From Candidatus Omnitrophota bacterium (lineage in GTDB: Bacteria; Omnitrophota; Gorgyraeia; Duberdicusellales; 4484-171), in contig PXAH01000096.1 of assembly GCA_003565945.1 (NCBI GenBank), positions 1 to 42,844 of the forward strand: 42,844 nt of DNA, written 5' to 3'. This document shows, in pieces, positions 5,197 through 15,059 of the stretch. Numbering within the stretch: the first letter of the stretch is position 1; each line of letters begins with the position of its first letter. The notes under the pieces are model-generated. The model was not told the origin of the DNA and made no database searches. It saw only the letters and a program-made list of their open reading frames with translations. The translations under genes were made by a program, and so were the position numbers.

Positions 5197-6852
5197 GTGA
5201 ATAAAAAAAGACTTTTCAGGTTTAAAGTAGTATATGCGGTTTTTGTGGGTTTGTTTTTAGTTCTTTCCTTAAGGATTGCCTATTTACAGATTTATAGGCG
5301 TGATTTTTTTACTCAACTATCTGAAAGGCAGCATTACGGCCTTTTTCAAATTAAAGCTAAAAGAGGTAGAATCCTCAGCCGCAACAAAGATGTCCTGGCT
5401 GAAAGTTTAAATTTTTATTCTGTTTTTGCCGATCCCTTTTTTATAAACGATAAAGCTCGGTACGCGAAAATTCTTTCGCAAGAGTTAGGTGTTCCGCGGG
5501 AAAGATTATTGTCCAGGCTAAAAATGAAAGGCCGGCGTTTTGTTTGGGTAAAAAGAAAAATAAATTGGCATGAAAAAAAACAACTGGAAAAGCTAAATTT
5601 AAGCGGAATCGGATTTATCAGGGAAGACCAAAGGTTTTATCCGGAAGCTGGCTTGTTTTCTTCACTCCTGGGCTTGGTAGATATAGATAATAACGGCATC
5701 GAAGGTATTGAGCTCTACTATGACCATTACTTACGCGGCAAACAGGGTTGGGTTAGGGCAATGCGGGATGGCACTTCTCAACGCTTGGTATTAACGCCTT
5801 TATTGACCAGGCTTCAGGAAGGAGCTGATCTAATTCTTACCCTTGATACCCGCATTCAGTACTGGTCTGATAAATACTTAAGGGAGCAGGTTGAGGAATT
5901 TCAGGCCAAAAAGGGGTCAGTTGTGGTTATGGACGCTGCAAGCGGTGATATTTTAGCATTGGCCAATTACAACGGCACAAAGGAATCAGGCAGGGGGGAT
6001 AACCGTCTTAATTTTTCCAGAAATGACGCGGCTATAGAGATGTTTGAACCTGGTTCGGTTTTTAAGGTGGTAGCTTTGGTTGCTGCTATTGCTGAAGGAG
6101 AGGTTCCTGAAAGTATTTATTGTGAAGATGGGAGGTTTAGAATTCCGGGATCTGTTTTGCGTGACTGGCGTCCCTATGGAGAGCTTTCTTTTGAGGAGGT
6201 TTTCCATAAATCAAGCAATATTGGTGTTGCTAAAATAGTTGAGTCTATGGGCAGAGATAAATTTTACGAATATTTAAGAAAATTTGGCTTGGGGGAAAGA
6301 ACCGGGATTGATTTTCCCGGTGAAATAAGAGGAAGCTTGCGGCCAGCGGAGCAGTGGTCAAGGACTTCCACATATATAATTCCTATAGGACAAGAAATAG
6401 GGGTAAATCTACTACAGTTAGCCAGAATTTTTGCGGTTATCGCAAATGGAGGAAATTTAGTGGCTCCGCGTTTGGCCGAGGCGGTTTGCCGTCAAGCTAC
6501 CTGTAAGGGCTTTGATTCTAAAAAAGAAAATATTTTTTCTGAATCAGTCGTCAATAAGGCCAGAGATATTTTAATAGGGGCGGTAGAGCAGGGGACAGGA
6601 GAGAGGGCTGCTGTTGAAGGAGAGGTGATAGGCGGTAAAACAGGAACCGCGCAGAAGTTTGATTTGGAATTAGGTAGATACTCTCCGGACAGATATAGAG
6701 CTAATTTTGCTGGTTTTATCTTAAGCACTAGCAGGCCGGTTGTTATCGCGGTAACGATTGATGAGCCAAAGGTTTCCCATTTTGGCGGAGTTGTGGCTGC
6801 TCCTCTTTTTCAAAAAATAGCTGAAAAAATTGTTGTTTATGATGTAGAATAA
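5197..6852 (+). CDS. ftsI: peptidoglycan D,D-transpeptidase FtsI/PBP3
   Basis: N-terminal TM, RG.I.SRN, R.YP, G.EGIE, catalytic SVFK, SSN and KTG motifs. Confidence 0.93.
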   Translation: MNKKRLFRFKVVYAVFVGLFLVLSLRIAYLQIYRRDFFTQLSERQHYGLFQIKAKRGRILSRNKDVLAESLNFYSVFADPFFINDKARYAKILSQELGVPRERLLSRLKMKGRRFVWVKRKINWHEKKQLEKLNLSGIGFIREDQRFYPEAGLFSSLLGLVDIDNNGIEGIELYYDHYLRGKQGWVRAMRDGTSQRLVLTPLLTRLQEGADLILTLDTRIQYWSDKYLREQVEEFQAKKGSVVVMDAASGDILALANYNGTKESGRGDNRLNFSRNDAAIEMFEPGSVFKVVALVAAIAEGEVPESIYCEDGRFRIPGSVLRDWRPYGELSFEEVFHKSSNIGVAKIVESMGRDKFYEYLRKFGLGERTGIDFPGEIRGSLRPAEQWSRTSTYIIPIGQEIGVNLLQLARIFAVIANGGNLVAPRLAEAVCRQATCKGFDSKKENIFSESVVNKARDILIGAVEQGTGERAAVEGEVIGGKTGTAQKFDLELGRYSPDRYRANFAGFILSTSRPVVIAVTIDEPKVSHFGGVVAAPLFQKIAEKIVVYDVE

Positions 6853-6866
6853 AATTAGGCTATCAA

Positions 6867-7008
6867 GGTTTATCGTTTATCGGTTGCGTAACTGGAAACG
6901 TTAATCGTCCATCGTTAATCGTTTTTAACTTATTTACTGTTATTTATTTTTTTAACGCAACCGGTTAACGTTTAACGATTCGAGCTACGCAACCATTCAA
7001 CGATCGAC
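6867..7008. repeat. GGTTGCG-box bipartite element, copy A (opposite orientation to B and C)
   Basis: Left end ggttgcgtaactggaaacg (6882-6900), right end cgattcgagctacgcaacc (6976-6994), inner cgcaacc at 6956; embedded in atcgtt-type heptamers. Confidence 0.85.
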
Positions 7009-7039
7009 AAAATTAATAATAGTCCGGTTTAAAAAGGTT

Positions 7040-8521
7040 ATGCTGGTTATGAAAATAAGAGACATTTTAAAAATAGCTGATAATCCAAAAATAGGCAATT
7101 TAGAAATAAAAGAAATTGCTGATGATTCACGCTCACTAACTGCCGGCAGTTTATTTTTTGTGATAAAAAGGCCGCGTTTTGATATATTTTCTGTTTTGAA
7201 AAAAACCGAAAAAAAAGTATCAGCTTATGTTGCCGACTTCAAGGATAAAAAGAAGGTGGAGGAAAGAATCAATAAAAAACCGGTTATTTATGTTAAAGGA
7301 GTGGACAATTATTTTCACCAGGCGGTCTGCCGTTTTTATAAGCCGGATAGAAAGCTTAAGGTGGTTGGGGTTACCGGAACAAACGGGAAGACTTCAACCG
7401 CTTATTTTTTGTATCAATTACTTAAGAAAGCCAAGAAGAAAACCGCTTTATTTGCTACAACCGGCTATTTTTTTAATTCATCGAAGCTAAAATCAAGCCA
7501 TACCACGGCTGATTTTCTCATCTTGCATAAATTAATTAAAAAAATAAGCCAAAAAGGAATAAAATATCTAGTCTTAGAGGTTTCTTCTCATGGGATAGAC
7601 CAAGGCAGAGTGAAAGGTATAAATTTTTCCAGCTGTGTCTTTACTAATCTCAGCAGAGACCATCTTGATTATCATAAAACGATGTCTTCCTACTTTGAGA
7701 CAAAAAAAAGTTTTTTTATGGGTAATCCCCGCGCTTATTCGATTATAAACAATGATTGCGCTTACGGGCGTAAAATACCGGTTCCTGCCTCTAAAAAAAT
7801 ATCTTACGGAATAAAAAACACTGCTGATTATCAAGCAAATAATATTAACTTTTTTGGTGATCGAACCAGGTTTGATTTAGCTTGCAAGGGCCGGAAGTTT
7901 TCTATTTCTGCTTCTTTTTTGGGCCGCCATAATATTTTAAATTTACTGGCTGCCATAGCTTCGGCTCGCAGCCTGGGCCTTCCTATGCCTCAGATACTGG
8001 ACTCAGTTCCTTTCCTGAAGAAGCCGGAAGGGCGGCTTGAAAAAGTGGACGATGTGTTTATAGATTATGCTCATACTCCTGAAAGCCTTGAACTTACTCT
8101 TTCTTCATTGAGAGATGCCGGTTACCAAAAAATAATTTCTCTTTTTGGCTGTGGTGGCAACAGGGATAAGGGCAAGCGAAAGATTATGGGAAAAATTTCT
8201 TCCCGGTTGGCTGATTTTACCGTTATTACTTCTGATAACCCCCGCGGAGAAGATCCTTTGGTTATTTGCAACCAAATCAAGGAGGGGGCCAGAAATGATA
8301 ATTTTTATCTTGTTTTAGATAGAAAAGAGGCAATTGAGGCAGGGATAAAATTGCTTAAAAAATTTAAAGCTTCCGGGCAAAAAACTTGTCTTTTGGTAGC
8401 GGGCAAAGGACATGAAGGCTTACAAATAATCAAAGATAAAAAAATCAAATTTAAGGATAAAGAAGTGGTGAAACAGTTTCTACGTTTGACGTTCAACGTT
8501 CGACGTTCAACCTTGATTTGA
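7040..8521 (+). CDS. murE: UDP-MurNAc-tripeptide synthetase (meso-DAP type)
   Basis: GVTGTNGKTS, EVSSHG, FTNLSRDHLDYH, DYAHTP, FGCGGNRD, DNPR (DAP-specificity motif), AGKGHE. Confidence 0.96.
   Translation: MLVMKIRDILKIADNPKIGNLEIKEIADDSRSLTAGSLFFVIKRPRFDIFSVLKKTEKKVSAYVADFKDKKKVEERINKKPVIYVKGVDNYFHQAVCRFYKPDRKLKVVGVTGTNGKTSTAYFLYQLLKKAKKKTALFATTGYFFNSSKLKSSHTTADFLILHKLIKKISQKGIKYLVLEVSSHGIDQGRVKGINFSSCVFTNLSRDHLDYHKTMSSYFETKKSFFMGNPRAYSIINNDCAYGRKIPVPASKKISYGIKNTADYQANNINFFGDRTRFDLACKGRKFSISASFLGRHNILNLLAAIASARSLGLPMPQILDSVPFLKKPEGRLEKVDDVFIDYAHTPESLELTLSSLRDAGYQKIISLFGCGGNRDKGKRKIMGKISSRLADFTVITSDNPRGEDPLVICNQIKEGARNDNFYLVLDRKEAIEAGIKLLKKFKASGQKTCLLVAGKGHEGLQIIKDKKIKFKDKEVVKQFLRLTFNVRRSTLI
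8481..8515. repeat. tandem heptamer (R)ACGTTY x5 at the murE 3' end
   Basis: tacgttt gacgttc aacgttc gacgttc aaccttg; same unit at 42324-42365. Confidence 0.75.
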
Positions 8522-8540
8522 TTGCGTTTGAGGTTTTGTG

Positions 8541-9893
8541 ATGAATATTAATAATTTTAAATATATTGAAAAAATAGTCAATCCTTACCAGATTTATAAT
8601 CTTTACTATTTCAGGCCGGTTAGAGGTTTCAGTTTAGATTCCCGCTCGATTAAAAAAGGCGAAGCTTTTATTGCGTTAGCCGGTAAACATAAAGACGGCC
8701 ATCATTACGCGGCAGAAGCGGCAAAAAAAGGAGCGTCCTTAATTATTGCTGAGAGGAAAACAGAAACTAATCCAAAAATTCCTCAGTTTATCGTTGAGGA
8801 TAGTTATCAGGCTTTAAAGGGATTGATTATTTTTGCCCGTAAAAAAATCAATAAAGCAAAAATTTTTGGAATAACCGGTTCTTTGGGAAAGACAACAACC
8901 AAAGAAATACTTGCTTTTAGTTTAGAGCCTTACGGAAGAGTTTTAAAAAGCAAGGGCACCGAAAATAATATTTTAGGTGTAGCTAAAACTATATTTTCTT
9001 ACCAAAATCATGATTTAGTTATTTTTGAATTAGGGGCCAATCATAAAGGAGAGCTTGCTGTCTTAGCCGATTTAACCAAGCCCGACATAGGTATTATTAC
9101 TTGCGTAAAGCCTGCTCATCTTGAAGGATTTGGCACTTTAGAGCAGGTTGGGCAGGAAAAGTTATCTCTTTTAAAAAACAGCCAAACAAAAGCGGTGTTA
9201 AACGCCAAAGACCCTTTTCTTTTTAAATCTGTTTTGCCCAATAGAGTTTATTGGTTTGGCCGGGGAAAAGCTAAAGGTAGGAAAAATAACCTTTATTGCT
9301 TTTTAGAAAAAAGAGAAAAAAATAAAGTTTACTTTAAGGTATTAGGTAAGTATAGCCTTATTTTACCCTCTTATTTAGAGCATTTTATTGATAATTATTT
9401 GGCGGCATTATTGGGGGGCCATCTTTTAGGCCTGCCTTATCAGGAACTGGTCAAACGCCTAAATTCTTTCAGGGGGTTTCCTTCTATGCGTATGGAGCAA
9501 AGCCGCATAGATAATTATTTAATTTTAAATGATGCTTACAACGCTAATCCTGACTCTTTTAAGGAAGCACTTAGGGTCTTAAAAAAATTTAAAATACCTA
9601 AGGTAGTTGTAGCGGCGGACATGCTTGAACTTGGTTCAAAATCAAATTATTACCACCGTCAACTTGCTTGCCAGCTTTTGGGAAGCGGGTGTCATTATTG
9701 CCTTACTTATGGCAGTCACACTCAGGCAGTTAACCGGCAGTTGAGAGCTTTGAGCTATAGAAATGCTTTTCATTTTTCATCACATCAAAAAATAGCTCAA
9801 TTTATTAAGAAAAAAATGAACAATAAAGAGTGTCTTATTTTGCTGAAAGGCTCTAGAGCAATGGAATTGGAAAAGGTTTTGAAATTTCTATAA
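8541..9893 (+). CDS. murF: UDP-MurNAc-tripeptide--D-Ala-D-Ala ligase
   Basis: DSRSI, DGH, GITGSLGKTTTKE, ELGANHKGE, HLEGFG, NDAYNANPDS, DMLELG, KGSRAMELE. Confidence 0.96.
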   Translation: MNINNFKYIEKIVNPYQIYNLYYFRPVRGFSLDSRSIKKGEAFIALAGKHKDGHHYAAEAAKKGASLIIAERKTETNPKIPQFIVEDSYQALKGLIIFARKKINKAKIFGITGSLGKTTTKEILAFSLEPYGRVLKSKGTENNILGVAKTIFSYQNHDLVIFELGANHKGELAVLADLTKPDIGIITCVKPAHLEGFGTLEQVGQEKLSLLKNSQTKAVLNAKDPFLFKSVLPNRVYWFGRGKAKGRKNNLYCFLEKREKNKVYFKVLGKYSLILPSYLEHFIDNYLAALLGGHLLGLPYQELVKRLNSFRGFPSMRMEQSRIDNYLILNDAYNANPDSFKEALRVLKKFKIPKVVVAADMLELGSKSNYYHRQLACQLLGSGCHYCLTYGSHTQAVNRQLRALSYRNAFHFSSHQKIAQFIKKKMNNKECLILLKGSRAMELEKVLKFL

Positions 9894-9931
9894 TATTTTT
9901 TTCTTTCTGGTACAATTGAAAGTAGAGAAAT

Positions 9932-9956
9932 TCCGCCCGGTTCTGGCGAAGGCGGA
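9932..9956. repeat. TCCGCC(TTCGCC)-family short palindrome
   Basis: tccgcc-cggttctggcgaa-ggcgga; its reverse complement begins tccgccttcgcca, identical to 12668-12680. Confidence 0.65.
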
Positions 9957-9961
9957 TAGCA

Positions 9962-10127
9962 TGAATCGGTAAACGTATATCGGTTGCGTAGCTCGAATCG
10001 TTGGAGGTTAATCGGTTGCGTTAAAATATTAATATCTGATGCTCAGCGAGTTACGGCAAATACCTTTAGTTACGCAACCATTCAACGATAGACGTTTCCA
10101 GTTACGCAACCCTTCAACGATTAACGA
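9962..10127. repeat. GGTTGCG-box bipartite element, copy B
   Basis: ggttgcgtagctcgaatcg (9982-10000), ggttgcg 10014, cgcaacc 10073, cgtttccagttacgcaacc (10093-10111). Confidence 0.85.
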
Positions 10128-10175
10128 GGCTTGTGTGCGTTCAGATAAGAAACAAAATTTAATCCGTTTTTACTT

Positions 10176-11258
10176 ATGATTTACCACCTGCTACATCCCT
10201 TATCAGACTATTTTTTTATTTTCAATATTACCAGATATATTACTTTTCGGGGAGGTTTTGCCCTGGTTACTTCTTTTTTGCTCATTTTTTTCCTTTGGCG
10301 GCCGGCTGTCCAAAGGCTGCATAAGCTTAAAATAACCGAACATATTAATATGTATGGCAATTTAGATTTAGAAGCCTTACATAGAAGCAAAAAAGGCACT
10401 CCTACTATGGGGGGGATTATTATTATTTTTTCTATTCTTATTTCGGTGCTTCTTTGGTCCCGCCTGGATAATCTTTTAGTTTGGGCAGTTTTATTTATTA
10501 TGCTTGGCCTGGCTGCCTTAGGTTTTGCTGATGATTTTTTAAAAATCAAAAAGGGGCATGGTTTACGCCGAAGCCAAAAATTATTTTGGCAAAGTTTAAT
10601 TGGGTTAATTTTTGCTGTGTTTATTTTTTTCAATAAAGATATAAGTCCTACTTGGAGCCTGCCTTTCTTTAAAGATTTAGCTGTTAACTTGGGTTATTTC
10701 TATATTTTTTGGGCAGTTCTTCTGGTGGTGGGATCTTCAAACGCGGTTAATTTTACTGATGGCCTTGACGGTTTAGCTATAGGTTGTCTGGTCATCAACG
10801 CGGCGGTTTTTGCTTTAATGGCTTATTTAGTAGGCCACATGCATTTTGCTGAATATTTATTTATTCCGCATGTACCTGGATCGGGAGAGTTGACAGTTTT
10901 AGCCTTAGCTTTGGTTGGGGCCGGATTAGGTTTTCTCTGGTACAACTCTTATCCGGCTGAGGTTTTTATGGGTGATGTGGGAGCCTTAGCTTTAGGAGGA
11001 GTTATCGGAGCGATTGCTTTGCTGATTAAAAAAGAATTTGTCCTTTTTGTTAGCGGAGGGTTATTTGTAATGGAGGCTTTAAGTGTAATTCTGCAGATGC
11101 TTTCTTTAAGATTACGAAAAAGAAGAATATTTAAAGCGGCCCCGCTGCATCACCATTTTCAACTTAAGAGTTGGCCGGAAACGAAAATAATAATTCGTTT
11201 TTGGATCATTACTATTGTCTTTGCCTGCTTAGCCTTGCTGACCCTTAAACTTCGCTAG
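10176..11258 (+). CDS. mraY: phospho-MurNAc-pentapeptide transferase
   Basis: KKGTPTMGG, ADDF, SNAVNFTDGLDGLA, YNSYPAEVFMGDVG, APLHHHFQ; multi-TM. Confidence 0.97.
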   Translation: MIYHLLHPLSDYFFIFNITRYITFRGGFALVTSFLLIFFLWRPAVQRLHKLKITEHINMYGNLDLEALHRSKKGTPTMGGIIIIFSILISVLLWSRLDNLLVWAVLFIMLGLAALGFADDFLKIKKGHGLRRSQKLFWQSLIGLIFAVFIFFNKDISPTWSLPFFKDLAVNLGYFYIFWAVLLVVGSSNAVNFTDGLDGLAIGCLVINAAVFALMAYLVGHMHFAEYLFIPHVPGSGELTVLALALVGAGLGFLWYNSYPAEVFMGDVGALALGGVIGAIALLIKKEFVLFVSGGLFVMEALSVILQMLSLRLRKRRIFKAAPLHHHFQLKSWPETKIIIRFWIITIVFACLALLTLKLR

Positions 11259-11260
11259 CT

Positions 11261-12508
11261 ATGAATCTAAAGAACGCAGATAAAATTTGTGTTGCCGGCT
11301 GGGGGAAAACAGGGGCCGCGCTTGTTAAATTATTACTGTCTTTAGGTAAGAAACCTAAAGTCACTGAAATAAAAAGCCGTGCTTATTTTTCTTCTTCCTT
11401 GATTGAGGCTTTCGAAAAGAAAGGGGTTGAATTTGAATTTGGAGGCCACTCAGAAGGTTTTGTATCAGCTTCAAACCTTATTCTGTTGAGTCCCGGCATA
11501 AATTTACTTAATTCTTCGTTAGGCAAGATTGCTTATGCCAGCGGCATCCCTTGCGTAGGGGAAATTGAATTTGCTTGGTATTTTTGCCAAGCAAAAATTA
11601 TCGCGATTACCGGGACAAACGGAAAAACAACGGTTGCTCACCTGACCTATCTTCTTTTAAAAAAGGCAAGGAAAAAAGTTTTTTTGGCGGGAAATATTGG
11701 CCGGCCTTTTTCGGATATTGTGCTTGATGCTAAAGCGGGAGATTTTATTGTTTTAGAGGTAAGCTCTTTCCAGCTAGAGTCTATCTTGAAGTTTAGGCCG
11801 CACATAGCTGTTTTGCTAAATATTTATCCCGACCACCTTAACCGACACAAAGATTTTGAAGGGTACGTCAAAGCAAAGATGAAAATTTTTCAAAACCAAA
11901 AAGAGAATGATTGGGCTTTAGTCGGGAAAAATAATGAATTATTTAGGGGGATTTCTTCAAAAATTCGTTCTCAGATTATTTATTTCGGGAGTGAATTTCC
12001 TGATGACAACCTATCTTGTGTTTATAGGATTGGAAGGCTTTTCAATATAAGCAAAACAGATTCATTTTTACTATTTTCGCAATATAAAAATCTTCCGCAT
12101 AGGCGCCAACAGATCAAAACTATCAATAAAGTAAAATTTATAAATGACTCAAAAGCAACCAATCCTTCTTCAACTTTTTTTGCCCTTGATTCAATTAAAG
12201 GTTCTGTTACTTTAATCGCCGGCGGCAGGGACAAAGGAGTTAGTTATTCTGGCTTGAGGCGTTATTGCCGAAAAATAAAAAAAATTAATCTTATCGGAGA
12301 GGCAGCCGATAAAATCAGAAAGGATTTAGAAGGTAAAATCAAGTGTCAGGATTTTAGTTCTTTAAGGGAGGCAGTAATATCTTCTTATCAGGAAGCTGCT
12401 GCCGGTGAAACCGTGCTTTTTTCTCCGATGTGCTCTAGTTTTGATATGTTTTCTGATTATCGGCAAAGAGGCCGGGAATTTATTGAGATTGTGAAAACAA
12501 TCTCGTAA
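11261..12508 (+). CDS. murD: UDP-MurNAc-L-Ala--D-Glu ligase
   Basis: SPGI, AITGTNGKTT, GNIG, EVSSFQL, DHLNRH, LPHR, NDSKATN, GGRDKG, FSPMCSSFDMF..Y..RG. Confidence 0.96.
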   Translation: MNLKNADKICVAGWGKTGAALVKLLLSLGKKPKVTEIKSRAYFSSSLIEAFEKKGVEFEFGGHSEGFVSASNLILLSPGINLLNSSLGKIAYASGIPCVGEIEFAWYFCQAKIIAITGTNGKTTVAHLTYLLLKKARKKVFLAGNIGRPFSDIVLDAKAGDFIVLEVSSFQLESILKFRPHIAVLLNIYPDHLNRHKDFEGYVKAKMKIFQNQKENDWALVGKNNELFRGISSKIRSQIIYFGSEFPDDNLSCVYRIGRLFNISKTDSFLLFSQYKNLPHRRQQIKTINKVKFINDSKATNPSSTFFALDSIKGSVTLIAGGRDKGVSYSGLRRYCRKIKKINLIGEAADKIRKDLEGKIKCQDFSSLREAVISSYQEAAAGETVLFSPMCSSFDMFSDYRQRGREFIEIVKTIS

Positions 12509-12550
12509 CCAGGACCTAGCCAAAAATGGAGATAGGGTATATACAGATTC

Positions 12551-12785
12551 CGTTGATCGCTGAAAGGTTACGTAGCTCGAATCGTTGAACGTCAATCGGT
12601 TGCGTTTTTTAATTTATACGTTCAACTTTCAACGATTGTCGATTTGAGTTATCCGCCTTAGCTAAAGTCCGCCTTCGCCAAGGTCCGGCTTCGGCGAGAT
12701 TTCTCCGAAGCTCGAAGAGCGAAGGAGAGCGCAACCGTTTACCGATAACCGTTTCCAGCTACGCAACCGATAGCCGATAGACGAT
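12551..12785. repeat. GGTTGCG-box bipartite element, copy C, carrying a 78-bp nested insertion
   Basis: ggttacgtagctcgaatcg (12566-12584), ggttgcg 12598, cgcaacc 12730, cgtttccagctacgcaacc (12750-12768); insertion 12652-12729. Confidence 0.85.
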
Positions 12786-13992
12786 GGCAAAATCAGTAGG
12801 ACGTTACAAAACTCGGACATTCATGTTTTTGGCGGCTTGGAATTTTTTAAAAGTTAAGGTTAAAGGGGGGGGCTTTTCAATATTTTCCTTTTTTTCGGCT
12901 CCCCCCAAGTCGTTAAATAGGGAAAGAAGGGTTTTGTTTTTTTTAATTTTCTGCTTAACTCTTTTTGGCTTACTTTTTGTTTATGAGTCATCCAGCCTTT
13001 ATTCTTTAAAATACCGGCAGGATGCCGCTTTCTTTTTTAAAAGACAGGTTTTCTTTTTCCTTTTGGGGCTTGCCGCCTTTGGGGGAGCCCTTTTTCTTGA
13101 TTTAAATTTTATCCGGCGGCATAGCAAAAAAGGCCTCTTATTTTTATTTCTTATTTTAGCCGCGGTTTTGTTTTTTGGTGAAATTATTGGAGGTGCCCGC
13201 AGGTGGGTTGGGCCGGGTTTATTACGTTTTCAGCCTTCTGAATTGGCAAAGATATTTTTCTTAGTATATTGTGCTGACTATTGCAGCCGGAAAGAAGTTA
13301 TTCTAAAGAACTTTCGCTACGGCCTGCTTCCTTTGCTTTTTATTTTATCTCTGGTTTGTTTTTTTCTTCTTCTTCAGCCTGATTTAGGAGGTGCGATCTT
13401 TTGGGTAGCTTGGCTTTTAATTTTTTCTTACTTATTTGGAGCTAAGCTTAAACATTTACTGGCAATTATTTTAGGGGGAGGGGTAAGTGTCGCGGCCTTG
13501 ATAGTACTTTATCCTTACAGGGTACGTAGAATAACAGCTTATCTTAATCCTTTTGCCGACCCCTTAGGAGCGGGCTTTCAGCTTGTTCAGTCTCAATTAG
13601 CTTACGGAAGGGGAGGGTTATTCGGAGTGGGTTTAGGCGAGGGAAGGCAAAAGCTTTTTTTTCTTCCGGCGGCGCACACAGATTTTATATTTTCGATTAT
13701 TGCCGAAGAATTAGGTTTTTTAGTAACTTTGGGGATTATATTTATATTTTTTCTTATTATTCATAAGATGCTCAAGATTGCTAAATTTTGTACTAACCAA
13801 TTCAGAAGAGGGCTGCTTTTGGGAATAGCCGTTATTTTTTTTCTGGAGGTATTTATAAATATAGGCGTTACCTGCGGCCTGCTTCCTACCAAGGGCATGC
13901 CCTTGCCGTTTATTAGTTACGGGGGAACCAGTTTAGTTGTACATTTTTTTCTTTTGGGGTTATTTTTTAACGCCTCAAAGGCATCTGAATGA
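12784..13992 (+). CDS. ftsW: cell division SEDS glycosyltransferase FtsW (start uncertain)
   Basis: GARRW, FQPSELAK, LQPDLG, PYR..RI, G.QL.QS, G.GLGEG.QK..FLPAAHTDFIFSIIAEELG, LPTKG..LPFISYGG. Confidence 0.95.
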   Translation: MAKSVGRYKTRTFMFLAAWNFLKVKVKGGGFSIFSFFSAPPKSLNRERRVLFFLIFCLTLFGLLFVYESSSLYSLKYRQDAAFFFKRQVFFFLLGLAAFGGALFLDLNFIRRHSKKGLLFLFLILAAVLFFGEIIGGARRWVGPGLLRFQPSELAKIFFLVYCADYCSRKEVILKNFRYGLLPLLFILSLVCFFLLLQPDLGGAIFWVAWLLIFSYLFGAKLKHLLAIILGGGVSVAALIVLYPYRVRRITAYLNPFADPLGAGFQLVQSQLAYGRGGLFGVGLGEGRQKLFFLPAAHTDFIFSIIAEELGFLVTLGIIFIFFLIIHKMLKIAKFCTNQFRRGLLLGIAVIFFLEVFINIGVTCGLLPTKGMPLPFISYGGTSLVVHFFLLGLFFNASKASE

Positions 13993-15059
13993 AAAAAAGA
14001 ATTTTGTTAGTTTCAGAAAGGAGCGGCGGCCATGTTTACCCGGCTTTGGCTGTAGGGGAAAAAATAGGAAGAAATATCCCCGGCAACGAAATTTTTTTCT
14101 TTACAAGTTCGAGCTTTTTTAAAAAACACATAAAAAGCAAAGGGTATCCGGTTTTTGGAACAGCCTTTAGTTTTAGAAATATATTTATTGAATTTTTTTG
14201 GCGTGCTTGGGAGGCTCTGTATATTCTTTTAAAAGTCCGGCCGGCATTGGTTATTGGCTTTGGAGGCAGAGATAGTTTTTGTTTGACTTTATTTAGTTGT
14301 TTGCTGGCAAAAAAAACTTTTATTTATGAACCCAATGTTAAAATGGGAAAATCAAACCGGGCTCTTTCCCGTTTTGTAAAGGTTATTTTTAGAGGTTTGC
14401 CTCCTTCAGAAAAAAGCAAAAAGGAAAAAATCGTGGGAGTTGTCTTAGAGGAAAAAATGCTGCTAAAGGTAAACAAAAATCAGGCTTTGCAGAATTTAGA
14501 TTTTAATAGAGACCCGGTAGTACTCTGCTTTGGGGGCAGCCAGGGGGCTAGTTTTATAAATAATAATTTTATGCGCTTCGCCGGCCGACACAATCAAAAA
14601 CCTTATCAAATTATTCATATTACCGGCCGCCAGGATTATAGCCGGGCTCTTGCTTTTTACAAAGATATAAAGAATAATAAAATTATTAAAGCTTTTTCCT
14701 GGCAGATGCCCCTTCTCTATAGCGCCGCTGATTTAGTTGTTTGCCGCAGTGGCGCTCTTACCTTGCCTGGCCTTTCTTTTTATAATTTGCCGGCCTTGTT
14801 AATTCCTCATCCGCAGGCTGGTGGGCATCAAGAGTCAAATGCGGCTCTCTTAGGCGAAAGGGAAGCCGCGCTGGTATTTAAGCAGGATGATTTTAATTTT
14901 ACACTTTTTGAGGATTGTTTAGAAAAAATGCTTTGGAATATTAGTTTTCGGAGTAAAATAAAAAATAATTTAGCAAAAATAAAATTGCACTCAGGTGGCT
15001 TCAACCAAAAAGAAGAATTTATGAAAGAGCTAGGTGTTAACGGAGCCAGCGGGAGCTAA
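13989..15059 (+). CDS. murG: undecaprenyl-PP-MurNAc-pentapeptide GlcNAc transferase
   Basis: SGGHVYPA, GFGG, EPN...G.SNR, GGSQGA, ADLVVCRSGALT, HQ..NA. Confidence 0.93.
   Translation: MKKRILLVSERSGGHVYPALAVGEKIGRNIPGNEIFFFTSSSFFKKHIKSKGYPVFGTAFSFRNIFIEFFWRAWEALYILLKVRPALVIGFGGRDSFCLTLFSCLLAKKTFIYEPNVKMGKSNRALSRFVKVIFRGLPPSEKSKKEKIVGVVLEEKMLLKVNKNQALQNLDFNRDPVVLCFGGSQGASFINNNFMRFAGRHNQKPYQIIHITGRQDYSRALAFYKDIKNNKIIKAFSWQMPLLYSAADLVVCRSGALTLPGLSFYNLPALLIPHPQAGGHQESNAALLGEREAALVFKQDDFNFTLFEDCLEKMLWNISFRSKIKNNLAKIKLHSGGFNQKEEFMKELGVNGASGS

Follow-up and report, generated by a model that had tools for sequence, protein, structure and literature searches.

Hairpin elements in the division and cell wall operon of an Omnitrophota bacterium: probable miniature derivatives of a small IVS-type four-helix-bundle cassette

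The division and cell wall (dcw) operon of a Candidatus Omnitrophota bacterium (GenBank assembly GCA_003565945.1) carries three related non-coding elements, here called copies A, B and C, in the ftsI–murE, murF–mraY and murD–ftsW gaps. These elements are probably miniature derivatives, devoid of an open reading frame (ORF), of a small selfish cassette that encodes a four-helix-bundle protein of the intervening sequence (IVS) type. The stretch analysed, referred to as the window, is the 42,844-nt contig PXAH01000096.1 (C137 of the 146 contigs of the 1.19-Mb assembly, which has 39.5% G+C and is 88% complete). The elements are bounded by two end boxes, X and Y, and combine the architecture and protein family of the IVSs known from ribosomal RNA (rRNA) with a location outside rRNA and the behaviour of MITEs (miniature transposable elements with inverted repeats). 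An earlier note on this DNA had proposed a non-autonomous mobile cassette with polar ends, a proposal supported by filled copies, the size of the family, empty sites in relatives and the polymorphism of copy A.

Each arm box is 19 nt long and headed by GGTTGCG (X, CTGGAAACG; Y, CTCGAATCG), and the Y arm repeats the GGTTGCG heptamer 32 nt inward. A search of the window with the pattern GGTTRCGTARCTSGAAWCG (≤1 mismatch) returned six matches, all of the X and Y sites that the earlier note had placed there, and none across 100 dinucleotide-preserving shuffles of the window. The degenerate heptamer filler described in the note was confirmed; the entire arm consists of 7-nt units in series, in which a CG(T) is conserved. 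In the genome as a whole, 37 X/Y-type ends (14 X, 18 Y and 5 hybrid; ≤4 mismatches) were found on 22 of the 146 contigs, providing the additional copies that the note had anticipated, and the family comprises about 20 or more members per genome. The copy numbers are lower bounds, since the family breaks the assembly: contigs C12 (40149), C117 (67), C122 (85), C131 (25) and C58 (180) start or end in or beside X/Y elements. Aligned compact copies share one consensus, which runs from an outer flank through X, about three heptamers and an AT-rich loop to the inner box ACGCAACC, and from there over 32 nt to Y' and the second outer flank; many of them are enclosed by ACACAGAT … ATCTGTGT. The great majority of the copies with long ORFs on both sides (16/19) lie between co-directional genes, where a tally by reading of the table gives 7 in sense and 9 in antisense orientation.

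The link to a protein-coding cassette comes from three X…Y pairs that are ~465 bp apart and enclose an ORF, one in the present genome (contig C93, 1160–1597, minus strand) and one in each of two other genera (G022:C11 and G013:C34), as the earlier note had predicted for a four-helix-bundle or IVS-type ORF between X and Y. The C93 ORF (145 aa) begins at a TTG within a GGTTGCG box and extends across the inner box to a stop in the Y arm. Its product scores well above the cut-offs of PF05635 (23S_rRNA_IVP; 69.9 bits versus 33.8) and TIGR02436 (“four helix bundle protein”; 61 bits versus 24), matches a Xanthomonas protein (PDB 2gsc chain, E 1.7e-4) and remains below the Avd model (16.7 bits, cut-off 80). 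The proteins of the filled copies in G022 and G013 are 80 and 79% identical to it, respectively. X lies upstream and Y downstream of the ORF in every filled copy, which gives meaning to the polarity of the ends, and alignment shows the compact copies to be the filled copy minus its ORF. The existence of filled X–ORF–Y copies is the reason for reading the dcw copies as ORF-less, MITE-like derivatives.

The C93 gene is one of nine PF05635 matches in the genome. One of the nine stands beside a reverse transcriptase on contig C36, where an Avd-like ORF and the reverse transcriptase gene that follows it (together 167–1761) make a probable diversity-generating retroelement (DGR) with a DGR-type Avd. 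Six of the remaining eight IVS-type genes are bracketed by inverted repeats of 17–57 nt that lie 343–448 nt apart, and the arms of each cassette have their own heptamer unit, e.g. GTTCGAC, AAATTCC/ACAAATT, AACCAGA or GACGAAG, so heptamer-array arms are a general trait of the PF05635 cassettes in this genome. A one-armed GTTCRAC array is also present in the window at 8477–8519, where it makes up the final ~13 codons of murE together with its stop codon (…LRLTFNVRRSTLI*); GTTCRAC is the arm unit of another PF05635 cassette, on contig C72. In the strain represented by run X3, this murE-end array has 28 extra nt, i.e. four heptamers, at 8496.

Comparison with relatives indicates that the dcw gaps are not always occupied. 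MurE is 58–62% identical to that of six same-genus genomes, so the congener sites are comparable at the gene level only. The ftsI stop is separated from the murE ATG by 1–2 nt in 6/6 congeners versus 187–196 nt here, and murD and ftsW are 0–18 nt apart or overlapping in 5/5 congeners versus 275 nt here (the contig of the sixth ends too early). These two spacers are the empty dcw sites that the earlier note had proposed to seek in relatives. The murF–mraY gap measures 62–255 nt in 5/5 congeners and holds different heptamer hairpins, e.g. (AGTCACA)n…(TGTGACC)n in G006, and in another genus (G013) a member of the X/Y family occupies the same gap; the murF–mraY spacer is a recurrent site for heptamer hairpins. 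The congener hairpins (loci L052–L057) are built of pure heptamers that differ from genome to genome, and they follow a conserved promoter-like motif, TTTTTGGTACAATATAAT, the counterpart of which in the window is TTCTGGTACAATTGAAAG at 9906–9923.

At the strain level, the comparison of filled and empty sites covers copy A alone, in a single pair. A 705-nt contig of run X3 matches 6522–6854 and 7044–7398 with 15 differences in 688 nt (~98% identical), and joins 6854 to 7044 through 17 unrelated nt, where the present genome has copy A (189 nt). One contig of run X1 covers 6551–7072, copy A included, and shows no difference. Since the X1 contig has copy A and the X3 contig does not, the copy is polymorphic among close strains. 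Copies B and C are not cleanly bridged by the strain contigs; the joints around 12606–12743 are many and short-sided, and represent other copies of the family.

Transcribed into RNA, each of the three gaps is predicted to form a long hairpin with bulges, X pairing with Y, with minimum free energies of −44.9, −75.7 and −87.2 kcal/mol for the A, B and C gaps (z −3.47, −2.43 and −3.01; 0, 1 and 0 of 200 shuffles fold as well). In this family, the differences between X and Y give the stem two mismatches, G·G and A·A. In an alignment of 37 compact copies, the boxes scarcely vary, and the register in which the heptamer filler pairs is not constant. On the X→Y strand, 46 G-U/U-G cells were tallied against 15 A-C/C-A cells (the cells are not independent), an excess that leans slightly in favour of pairing in RNA of the ORF's sense. 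No terminator-like sites were seen on the plus strand within the elements, and Rfam returned only two tRNAs at gathering score, with no match at E ≤ 1 in 6700–12900. A search among RNA runs for 5200–14000 of the window gave no run containing that stretch. The elements probably persist in the mRNA as hairpins that are left uncleaved. The alternative offered in the earlier note, an mRNA hairpin tolerated inside the operon, survives in this sense, as the likely inserted state given the folds and the lack of a sense-strand terminator, and is no rival to the mobile cassette.

A rival explanation is that the hairpins belong to the host, as vertically inherited regulatory RNA acting as intercistronic stabilisers or processing sites of the dcw mRNA. 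The stable folds and the G-U excess agree with such a role, as does the murF–mraY gap of the congeners, which always has some hairpin behind the conserved promoter-like TGGTACAAT motif. A vertically inherited host structure is, however, hard to reconcile with ftsI–murE and murD–ftsW spacers that are empty in all congeners examined, with the absence of copy A from a 98%-identical strain, with the occurrence of both orientations, and with the presence of the same element at 20 or more unrelated loci and, together with its ORF, in other phyla. Host-owned RNA is therefore considered distinctly improbable, and derivation from the IVS-type cassette remains the preferred reading of the dcw copies.

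The family is patchily distributed. In 41 related genomes, including the present one, the Y pattern (≤2 mismatches) occurs in six, with 26 matches in the own genome, 24 in G022, 20 in G013, 8 in G032, 6 in G021 and 4 in G004, compared with a single match for the reversed control pattern in all 41. ORFs at least 55% identical to that of C93 are encoded in 7/41 genomes, including four of the six holders of the Y pattern. Beyond these relatives, a search of a collection of species-representative genomes confirmed 168 stretches that encode relatives, the best 80 of which were kept. According to the record titles, relatives with 60–79% identity come from Omnitrophota, Desulfobacterales, Pirellulales, Phycisphaerae, Sedimentisphaerales, Chloroflexota, Dehalococcoidia, Cloacimonadota, Bacteroidales, several Patescibacteria and one Thermoplasmata archaeon. 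Among the 47 top-ranked loci with both flanks (52–79% identity), 22 have forward GGTTRCG boxes upstream and reverse boxes downstream, in both cases no more than 130 nt away, against a background of 0.51 boxes per kb elsewhere in these loci. The arms vary by lineage yet are homologous; in Desulfobacterota and Planctomycetota, GGTTGCGCAACTCGTATCG lies upstream and CGAAACGAGCAGCGCAACC downstream, and the A·A mismatch is, by reading, placed as in the own genome. The exact X box was found in 35 metagenome stretches, comprising 22 compact elements, 5 with an ORF, 4 in unrelated coding sequence and 4 that are unclear. No close relatives of the C93 protein were found in viral contigs. From these sequence comparisons, the cassette appears to spread between bacterial phyla without a recognisable transposase.

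One possible source of mobility is a REP-associated tyrosine transposase (RAYT; Y1_Tnp) acting in trans, with the elements as hairpins similar to repetitive extragenic palindromic (REP) sequences or to their hairpin-forming doublets (REPINs), and the four-helix-bundle ORF as a passenger. Four Y1_Tnp matches over the cut-off were found in the own genome (on C30, C71, C101 and C66), the elements are intergenic imperfect palindromes in both orientations, REPs carry GTAG and so does the box, and on single-stranded DNA the conserved mismatches might allow one strand to be chosen. Among the RAYT-like ORFs, one (412-aa frame) is considerably extended at the C-terminus, and another (338 aa) has a helix-turn-helix-like tail there. 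X/Y boxes, however, flank none of the four genes, the sole box within 3 kb being a single GGTTGCG on C66, and the arms travel with the PF05635 ORF across phyla. Y1_Tnp is found in 34/41 relatives versus 6/41 for the X/Y pattern, so there is no specific association between the two. RAYT or TnpA-Y1 genes between X and Y, which the earlier note had named as a possible filling, were searched for without success, and the RAYT-like genes are unlinked to X/Y. With no flanking boxes and such different distributions, a RAYT link was discarded as a candidate, and mobilisation of REP-like hairpins by the genome's own RAYT is rated as unlikely.

Integrons offer another route, in which an integron integrase would act on the compact hairpin as it does on an attC site; this would explain the spread of a one-gene cassette across domains. 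The attC consensus is GTTRRRY/RYYYAAC, and many of the heptamers fit it (e.g. GTTGAAC); the hairpin is likewise imperfect with conserved unpaired positions, and integrases over the curated cut-off are encoded in 7/41 relatives, including three of the six genomes with the X/Y pattern. These seven (G002, G004, G009, G014, G021, G022 and G023) have ordinary-looking attC sites alongside. The own genome, by contrast, has no integrase over the cut-off (best 113 bits, cut-off 265); five of six integron loci have no GGTTRCG box and the sixth a single reverse one, and their attC-like sites look different. Moreover, the ORF is found inside the X/Y hairpin and not beside it, and the copies are scattered singly in operon spacers and form no arrays. 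With no integrase in the genome and integron loci that are essentially free of boxes, this candidate was also rejected, and an integron origin seems extremely improbable.

Several results weigh against derivation from a mobile IVS-type cassette. The copies are ~75% identical within the genome versus 68% between genomes, which is not like a very recent burst. At copy A, no direct repeat indicative of a target-site duplication was seen in the single filled/empty pair, so the event is not callable as a clean transposition, and for this copy alone deletion in the X3 strain is an option. Although X pairs with Y in the consensus of the 37 compact copies, only one of the 19 pairs is compensatory; as these copies were chosen by their boxes, conservation of the boxes is partly by construction and covariation is weak evidence either way. 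ORF-less copies are present in G004 and G032, with no close C93-like ORF in the assembled part of either genome. RNase III, the enzyme that excises classical IVSs from the transcript and is needed by the classical IVS model, was not found in the own genome with PF14622, nor with TIGR02191 (0/21) or PF00636 (0/21) in the lineage, sampled as the order of the own genome and its neighbours (G001–G032 range; 12 of the 21 genomes ≥90% complete). In other classes of the phylum, 33 of 35 sampled genomes gave a match to the same RNase III model, and as the search succeeds elsewhere, the lineage seems to lack the enzyme. Finally, no movement enzyme for the X/Y elements was identified among the RAYT, integron integrase and RNase III candidates, and a four-helix bundle is not known to be catalytically active.

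Returning to the window, the features of the three copies are collected in Table 1. Direct reading of the order of X and Y confirmed that copy A is inverted relative to copies B and C. By the ORF map, the ftsI stop is at 6852 and the murE ATG at 7040, although comparison with the sequences of relatives makes a murE start at 7049 more likely; the murF stop is at 9893 and the mraY ATG at 10176, and the murD stop at 12508 and the ftsW ATG at 12784, the latter being supplied or overlapped by the right end of copy C. The limits of 9962–10127 that the earlier note had given for the murF/mraY gap proved too narrow and sit within a larger element-bearing gap, copy B starting near 9933. Copy B includes a third arm type, Z, which begins GGTTGCGTAACTAAAGG; the same Z arm recurs on contig C63. 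The 32-nt spacing corresponds in the window to the direct-repeat families D1–D3, and genome-wide 18 of 26 same-strand neighbouring GGTTRCG pairs (≤120 nt apart) are spaced exactly 32 nt. The spacing recorded in the note thus holds throughout the genome. Its two-box X arms are not a trait of the canonical element, in which the inner box belongs to the Y arm only; the second boxes on the X arms of copies B and C result from extra nested modules, namely a Z-type arm in the former and a GC-rich module in the latter.

Table 1. Positions of the X/Y elements and their parts in the window (nt).
Feature	Position	Strand	Remarks
Copy A, compact ORF-less element	6855–7043	+	X→Y runs with the dcw genes; 189 nt
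X box of copy A	6882–6900	+	GGTTGCGTAACTGGAAACG; pattern search
Y arm of copy A	6956–6994	−	Y box 6976–6994; inner GGTTGCG 6956–6962, 32 nt inward
Copy B, mosaic element	9933–10137	−	Antisense to the dcw genes
GC-rich module remnant at start of copy B	9933–9956		Followed by the partial Y unit
Partial (third) Y unit of copy B	9957–9968		
Y arm of copy B	9982–10020	+	Y box 9982–10000; inner box 10014–10020
X and Z arms of copy B	10061–10111	−	X box 10093–10111; Z arm 10061–10079, 32 nt inward
Copy C, mosaic element	12541–12785	−	Antisense to the dcw genes
Y arm of copy C	12566–12604	+	Y box 12566–12584; inner box 12598–12604
GC-rich palindromic module in copy C	12652–12729	−	Nested between GGTTGCG (12730–12736) and the box remainder
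X arm of copy C	12730–12768	−	X box 12750–12768; second box 12730–12736

The GC-rich palindromic module (~55 nt) has nine copies in the own genome, eight of which follow directly after GGTTGCG and precede the TAGCT of the box, and it resembles a further element of smaller size with the box as its target. Besides the two sites in the window, it was noted on contigs C13, C35, C49, C56, C58, C64, C81 and C131. The outer flanks of the elements show a further pattern. All ten paired elements in the own genome have, by reading, one TTGAAR-type and one TATC-type flank, and the TTGAAR flank adjoins X in seven and Y in three. A rough classifier applied to a wider set of 37 copies gave 18 a/b, 8 b/a, 9 b/b and 2 a/a flank types, and the pairing rule was dropped as a general one because it failed in that set. 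The flank pattern remains a hint of core inversion, and the placement of the nested module together with the swapping of flanks would fit breakage and rejoining at the box. Recombination at GGTTGCG^TAGCT could then give rise both to the nested module and to cores that are inverted with respect to their outer flanks.

At locus L073 (G022:C25) and in many of the own copies, X/Y elements are also found at the centre of other palindromes, either TAATTTCTAATTGG…CCAATTAGAAATTA or the ACACAGAT…ATCTGTGT pair. This position suggests that they are inserted into the tips of pre-existing hairpins.

Classical 23S rRNA IVSs and their homologues (Coxiella, Leptospira, Xanthomonas-type) are a close parallel, with the same protein family, PF05635, and the same placement of the ORF in the loop of a long inverted-repeat stem. 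According to PMC4990558, the Coxiella IVS has tandem GACAGAT heptamers before the S23p ORF, in two or three copies depending on the strain. Heptameric repeats of strain-variable number beside the ORF start thus have a counterpart here in the 28-nt, four-heptamer strain indel. Where IVSs come from and whether they are mobile has been under discussion, as an unsettled matter, since the 1990s (PMC4990558), the function of the S23p family and the origin of IVSs are described as still unknown (PMC4990558, PMC11270868, PMC3936711), and PF05635 genes have also been reported between cas genes (PMC3936711), a location that fits the behaviour of the X/Y cassettes. Unlike rRNA IVSs, the X/Y copies reside in mRNA spacers of an essential operon and most have no ORF, the excising enzyme RNase III was found in 0/21 lineage genomes, and no PF05635 match was found inside the long 23S genes of five relatives. 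No 23S gene is assembled in the own genome; 23S rRNA genes of 3.4–4.5 kb with large insertions are present in G024, G025, G029, G031, G035 and G039, and in the five of these examined the insertions are free of PF05635 matches.

The compact copies also resemble the bacterial MITEs of Neisseria, the Correia elements or NEMIS (Neisseria miniature insertion sequences), in being 100–250 bp long and non-coding, with inverted ends and tens of copies, in lying between co-transcribed genes and folding in the mRNA, and in having a longer relative with the same ends. The longer X/Y relative differs in that it encodes a four-helix-bundle protein only and no transposase; furthermore, no target-site duplication was seen at copy A (one filled/empty pair), and the ends are heptamer arrays with internal boxes, not simple terminal inverted repeats. 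As in REPs, bacterial interspersed mosaic elements (BIMEs) and REPINs, slightly different palindromic units (X, Y and Z) of opposite orientation form a mosaic, comparable to the Y and Z REPs of BIMEs, and occur within operons as intergenic hairpin doublets, but the units flank none of the RAYT genes, and the X/Y family does not follow the distribution of RAYT. The DGR accessory protein Avd belongs to the same Pfam family as the cassette protein, which, unlike Avd, stands alone with no adjoining reverse transcriptase. In the literature searched, to which supplements and subscription journals did not belong, no description of dispersed ORF-less derivatives of IVS-type cassettes was found.

These comparisons suggest how the cassette and its derivatives may operate. 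Once inserted, an element would be co-transcribed with the operon in either orientation and would form a long bulged hairpin in the mRNA; as this hairpin has no terminator tail, the downstream genes would still be expressed. Excision of the kind known for rRNA IVSs would be improbable in a lineage without RNase III. The conserved boxes may serve as cis sites for making or maintaining copies, with the four-helix-bundle protein of the cassette itself, encoded by the C93 copy, as the likeliest trans factor, together with replication or recombination enzymes of the host.

A bolder reading is that PF05635 genes with heptamer-repeat hairpin arms make up a distinct class of transposase-free mobile cassette. 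The four-helix-bundle protein, a relative of Avd, would recognise the X/Y boxes and recruit host enzymes; the ORF-less hairpins would be the MITEs of the element; insertion would aim at hairpin tips and at intercistronic spacers of transcribed DNA; classical rRNA IVSs would be no more than the special case that chanced to come to notice first; and the loss of RNase III may let hairpins accumulate in essential operons. Taken as a whole, this set of proposals is tentative, and we regard it as possible yet doubtful.

The “23S rRNA IVS protein” family is large and is found in rRNA genes, CRISPR-cas operons and many other loci. The elements described here provide a tractable system for its study: the unit measures 470 bp, its boxes are conserved and polar, and the genome has one intact coding copy and ~20 ORF-less copies. 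Together with a natural filled/empty polymorphism and homologous units in distant phyla, this makes the function of S23p and the mobility of IVSs testable. The data also reveal that an essential and normally tightly packed operon can carry three hairpin inserts of 190–280 nt, and point to a lineage without detected RNase III in which such hairpins are common.

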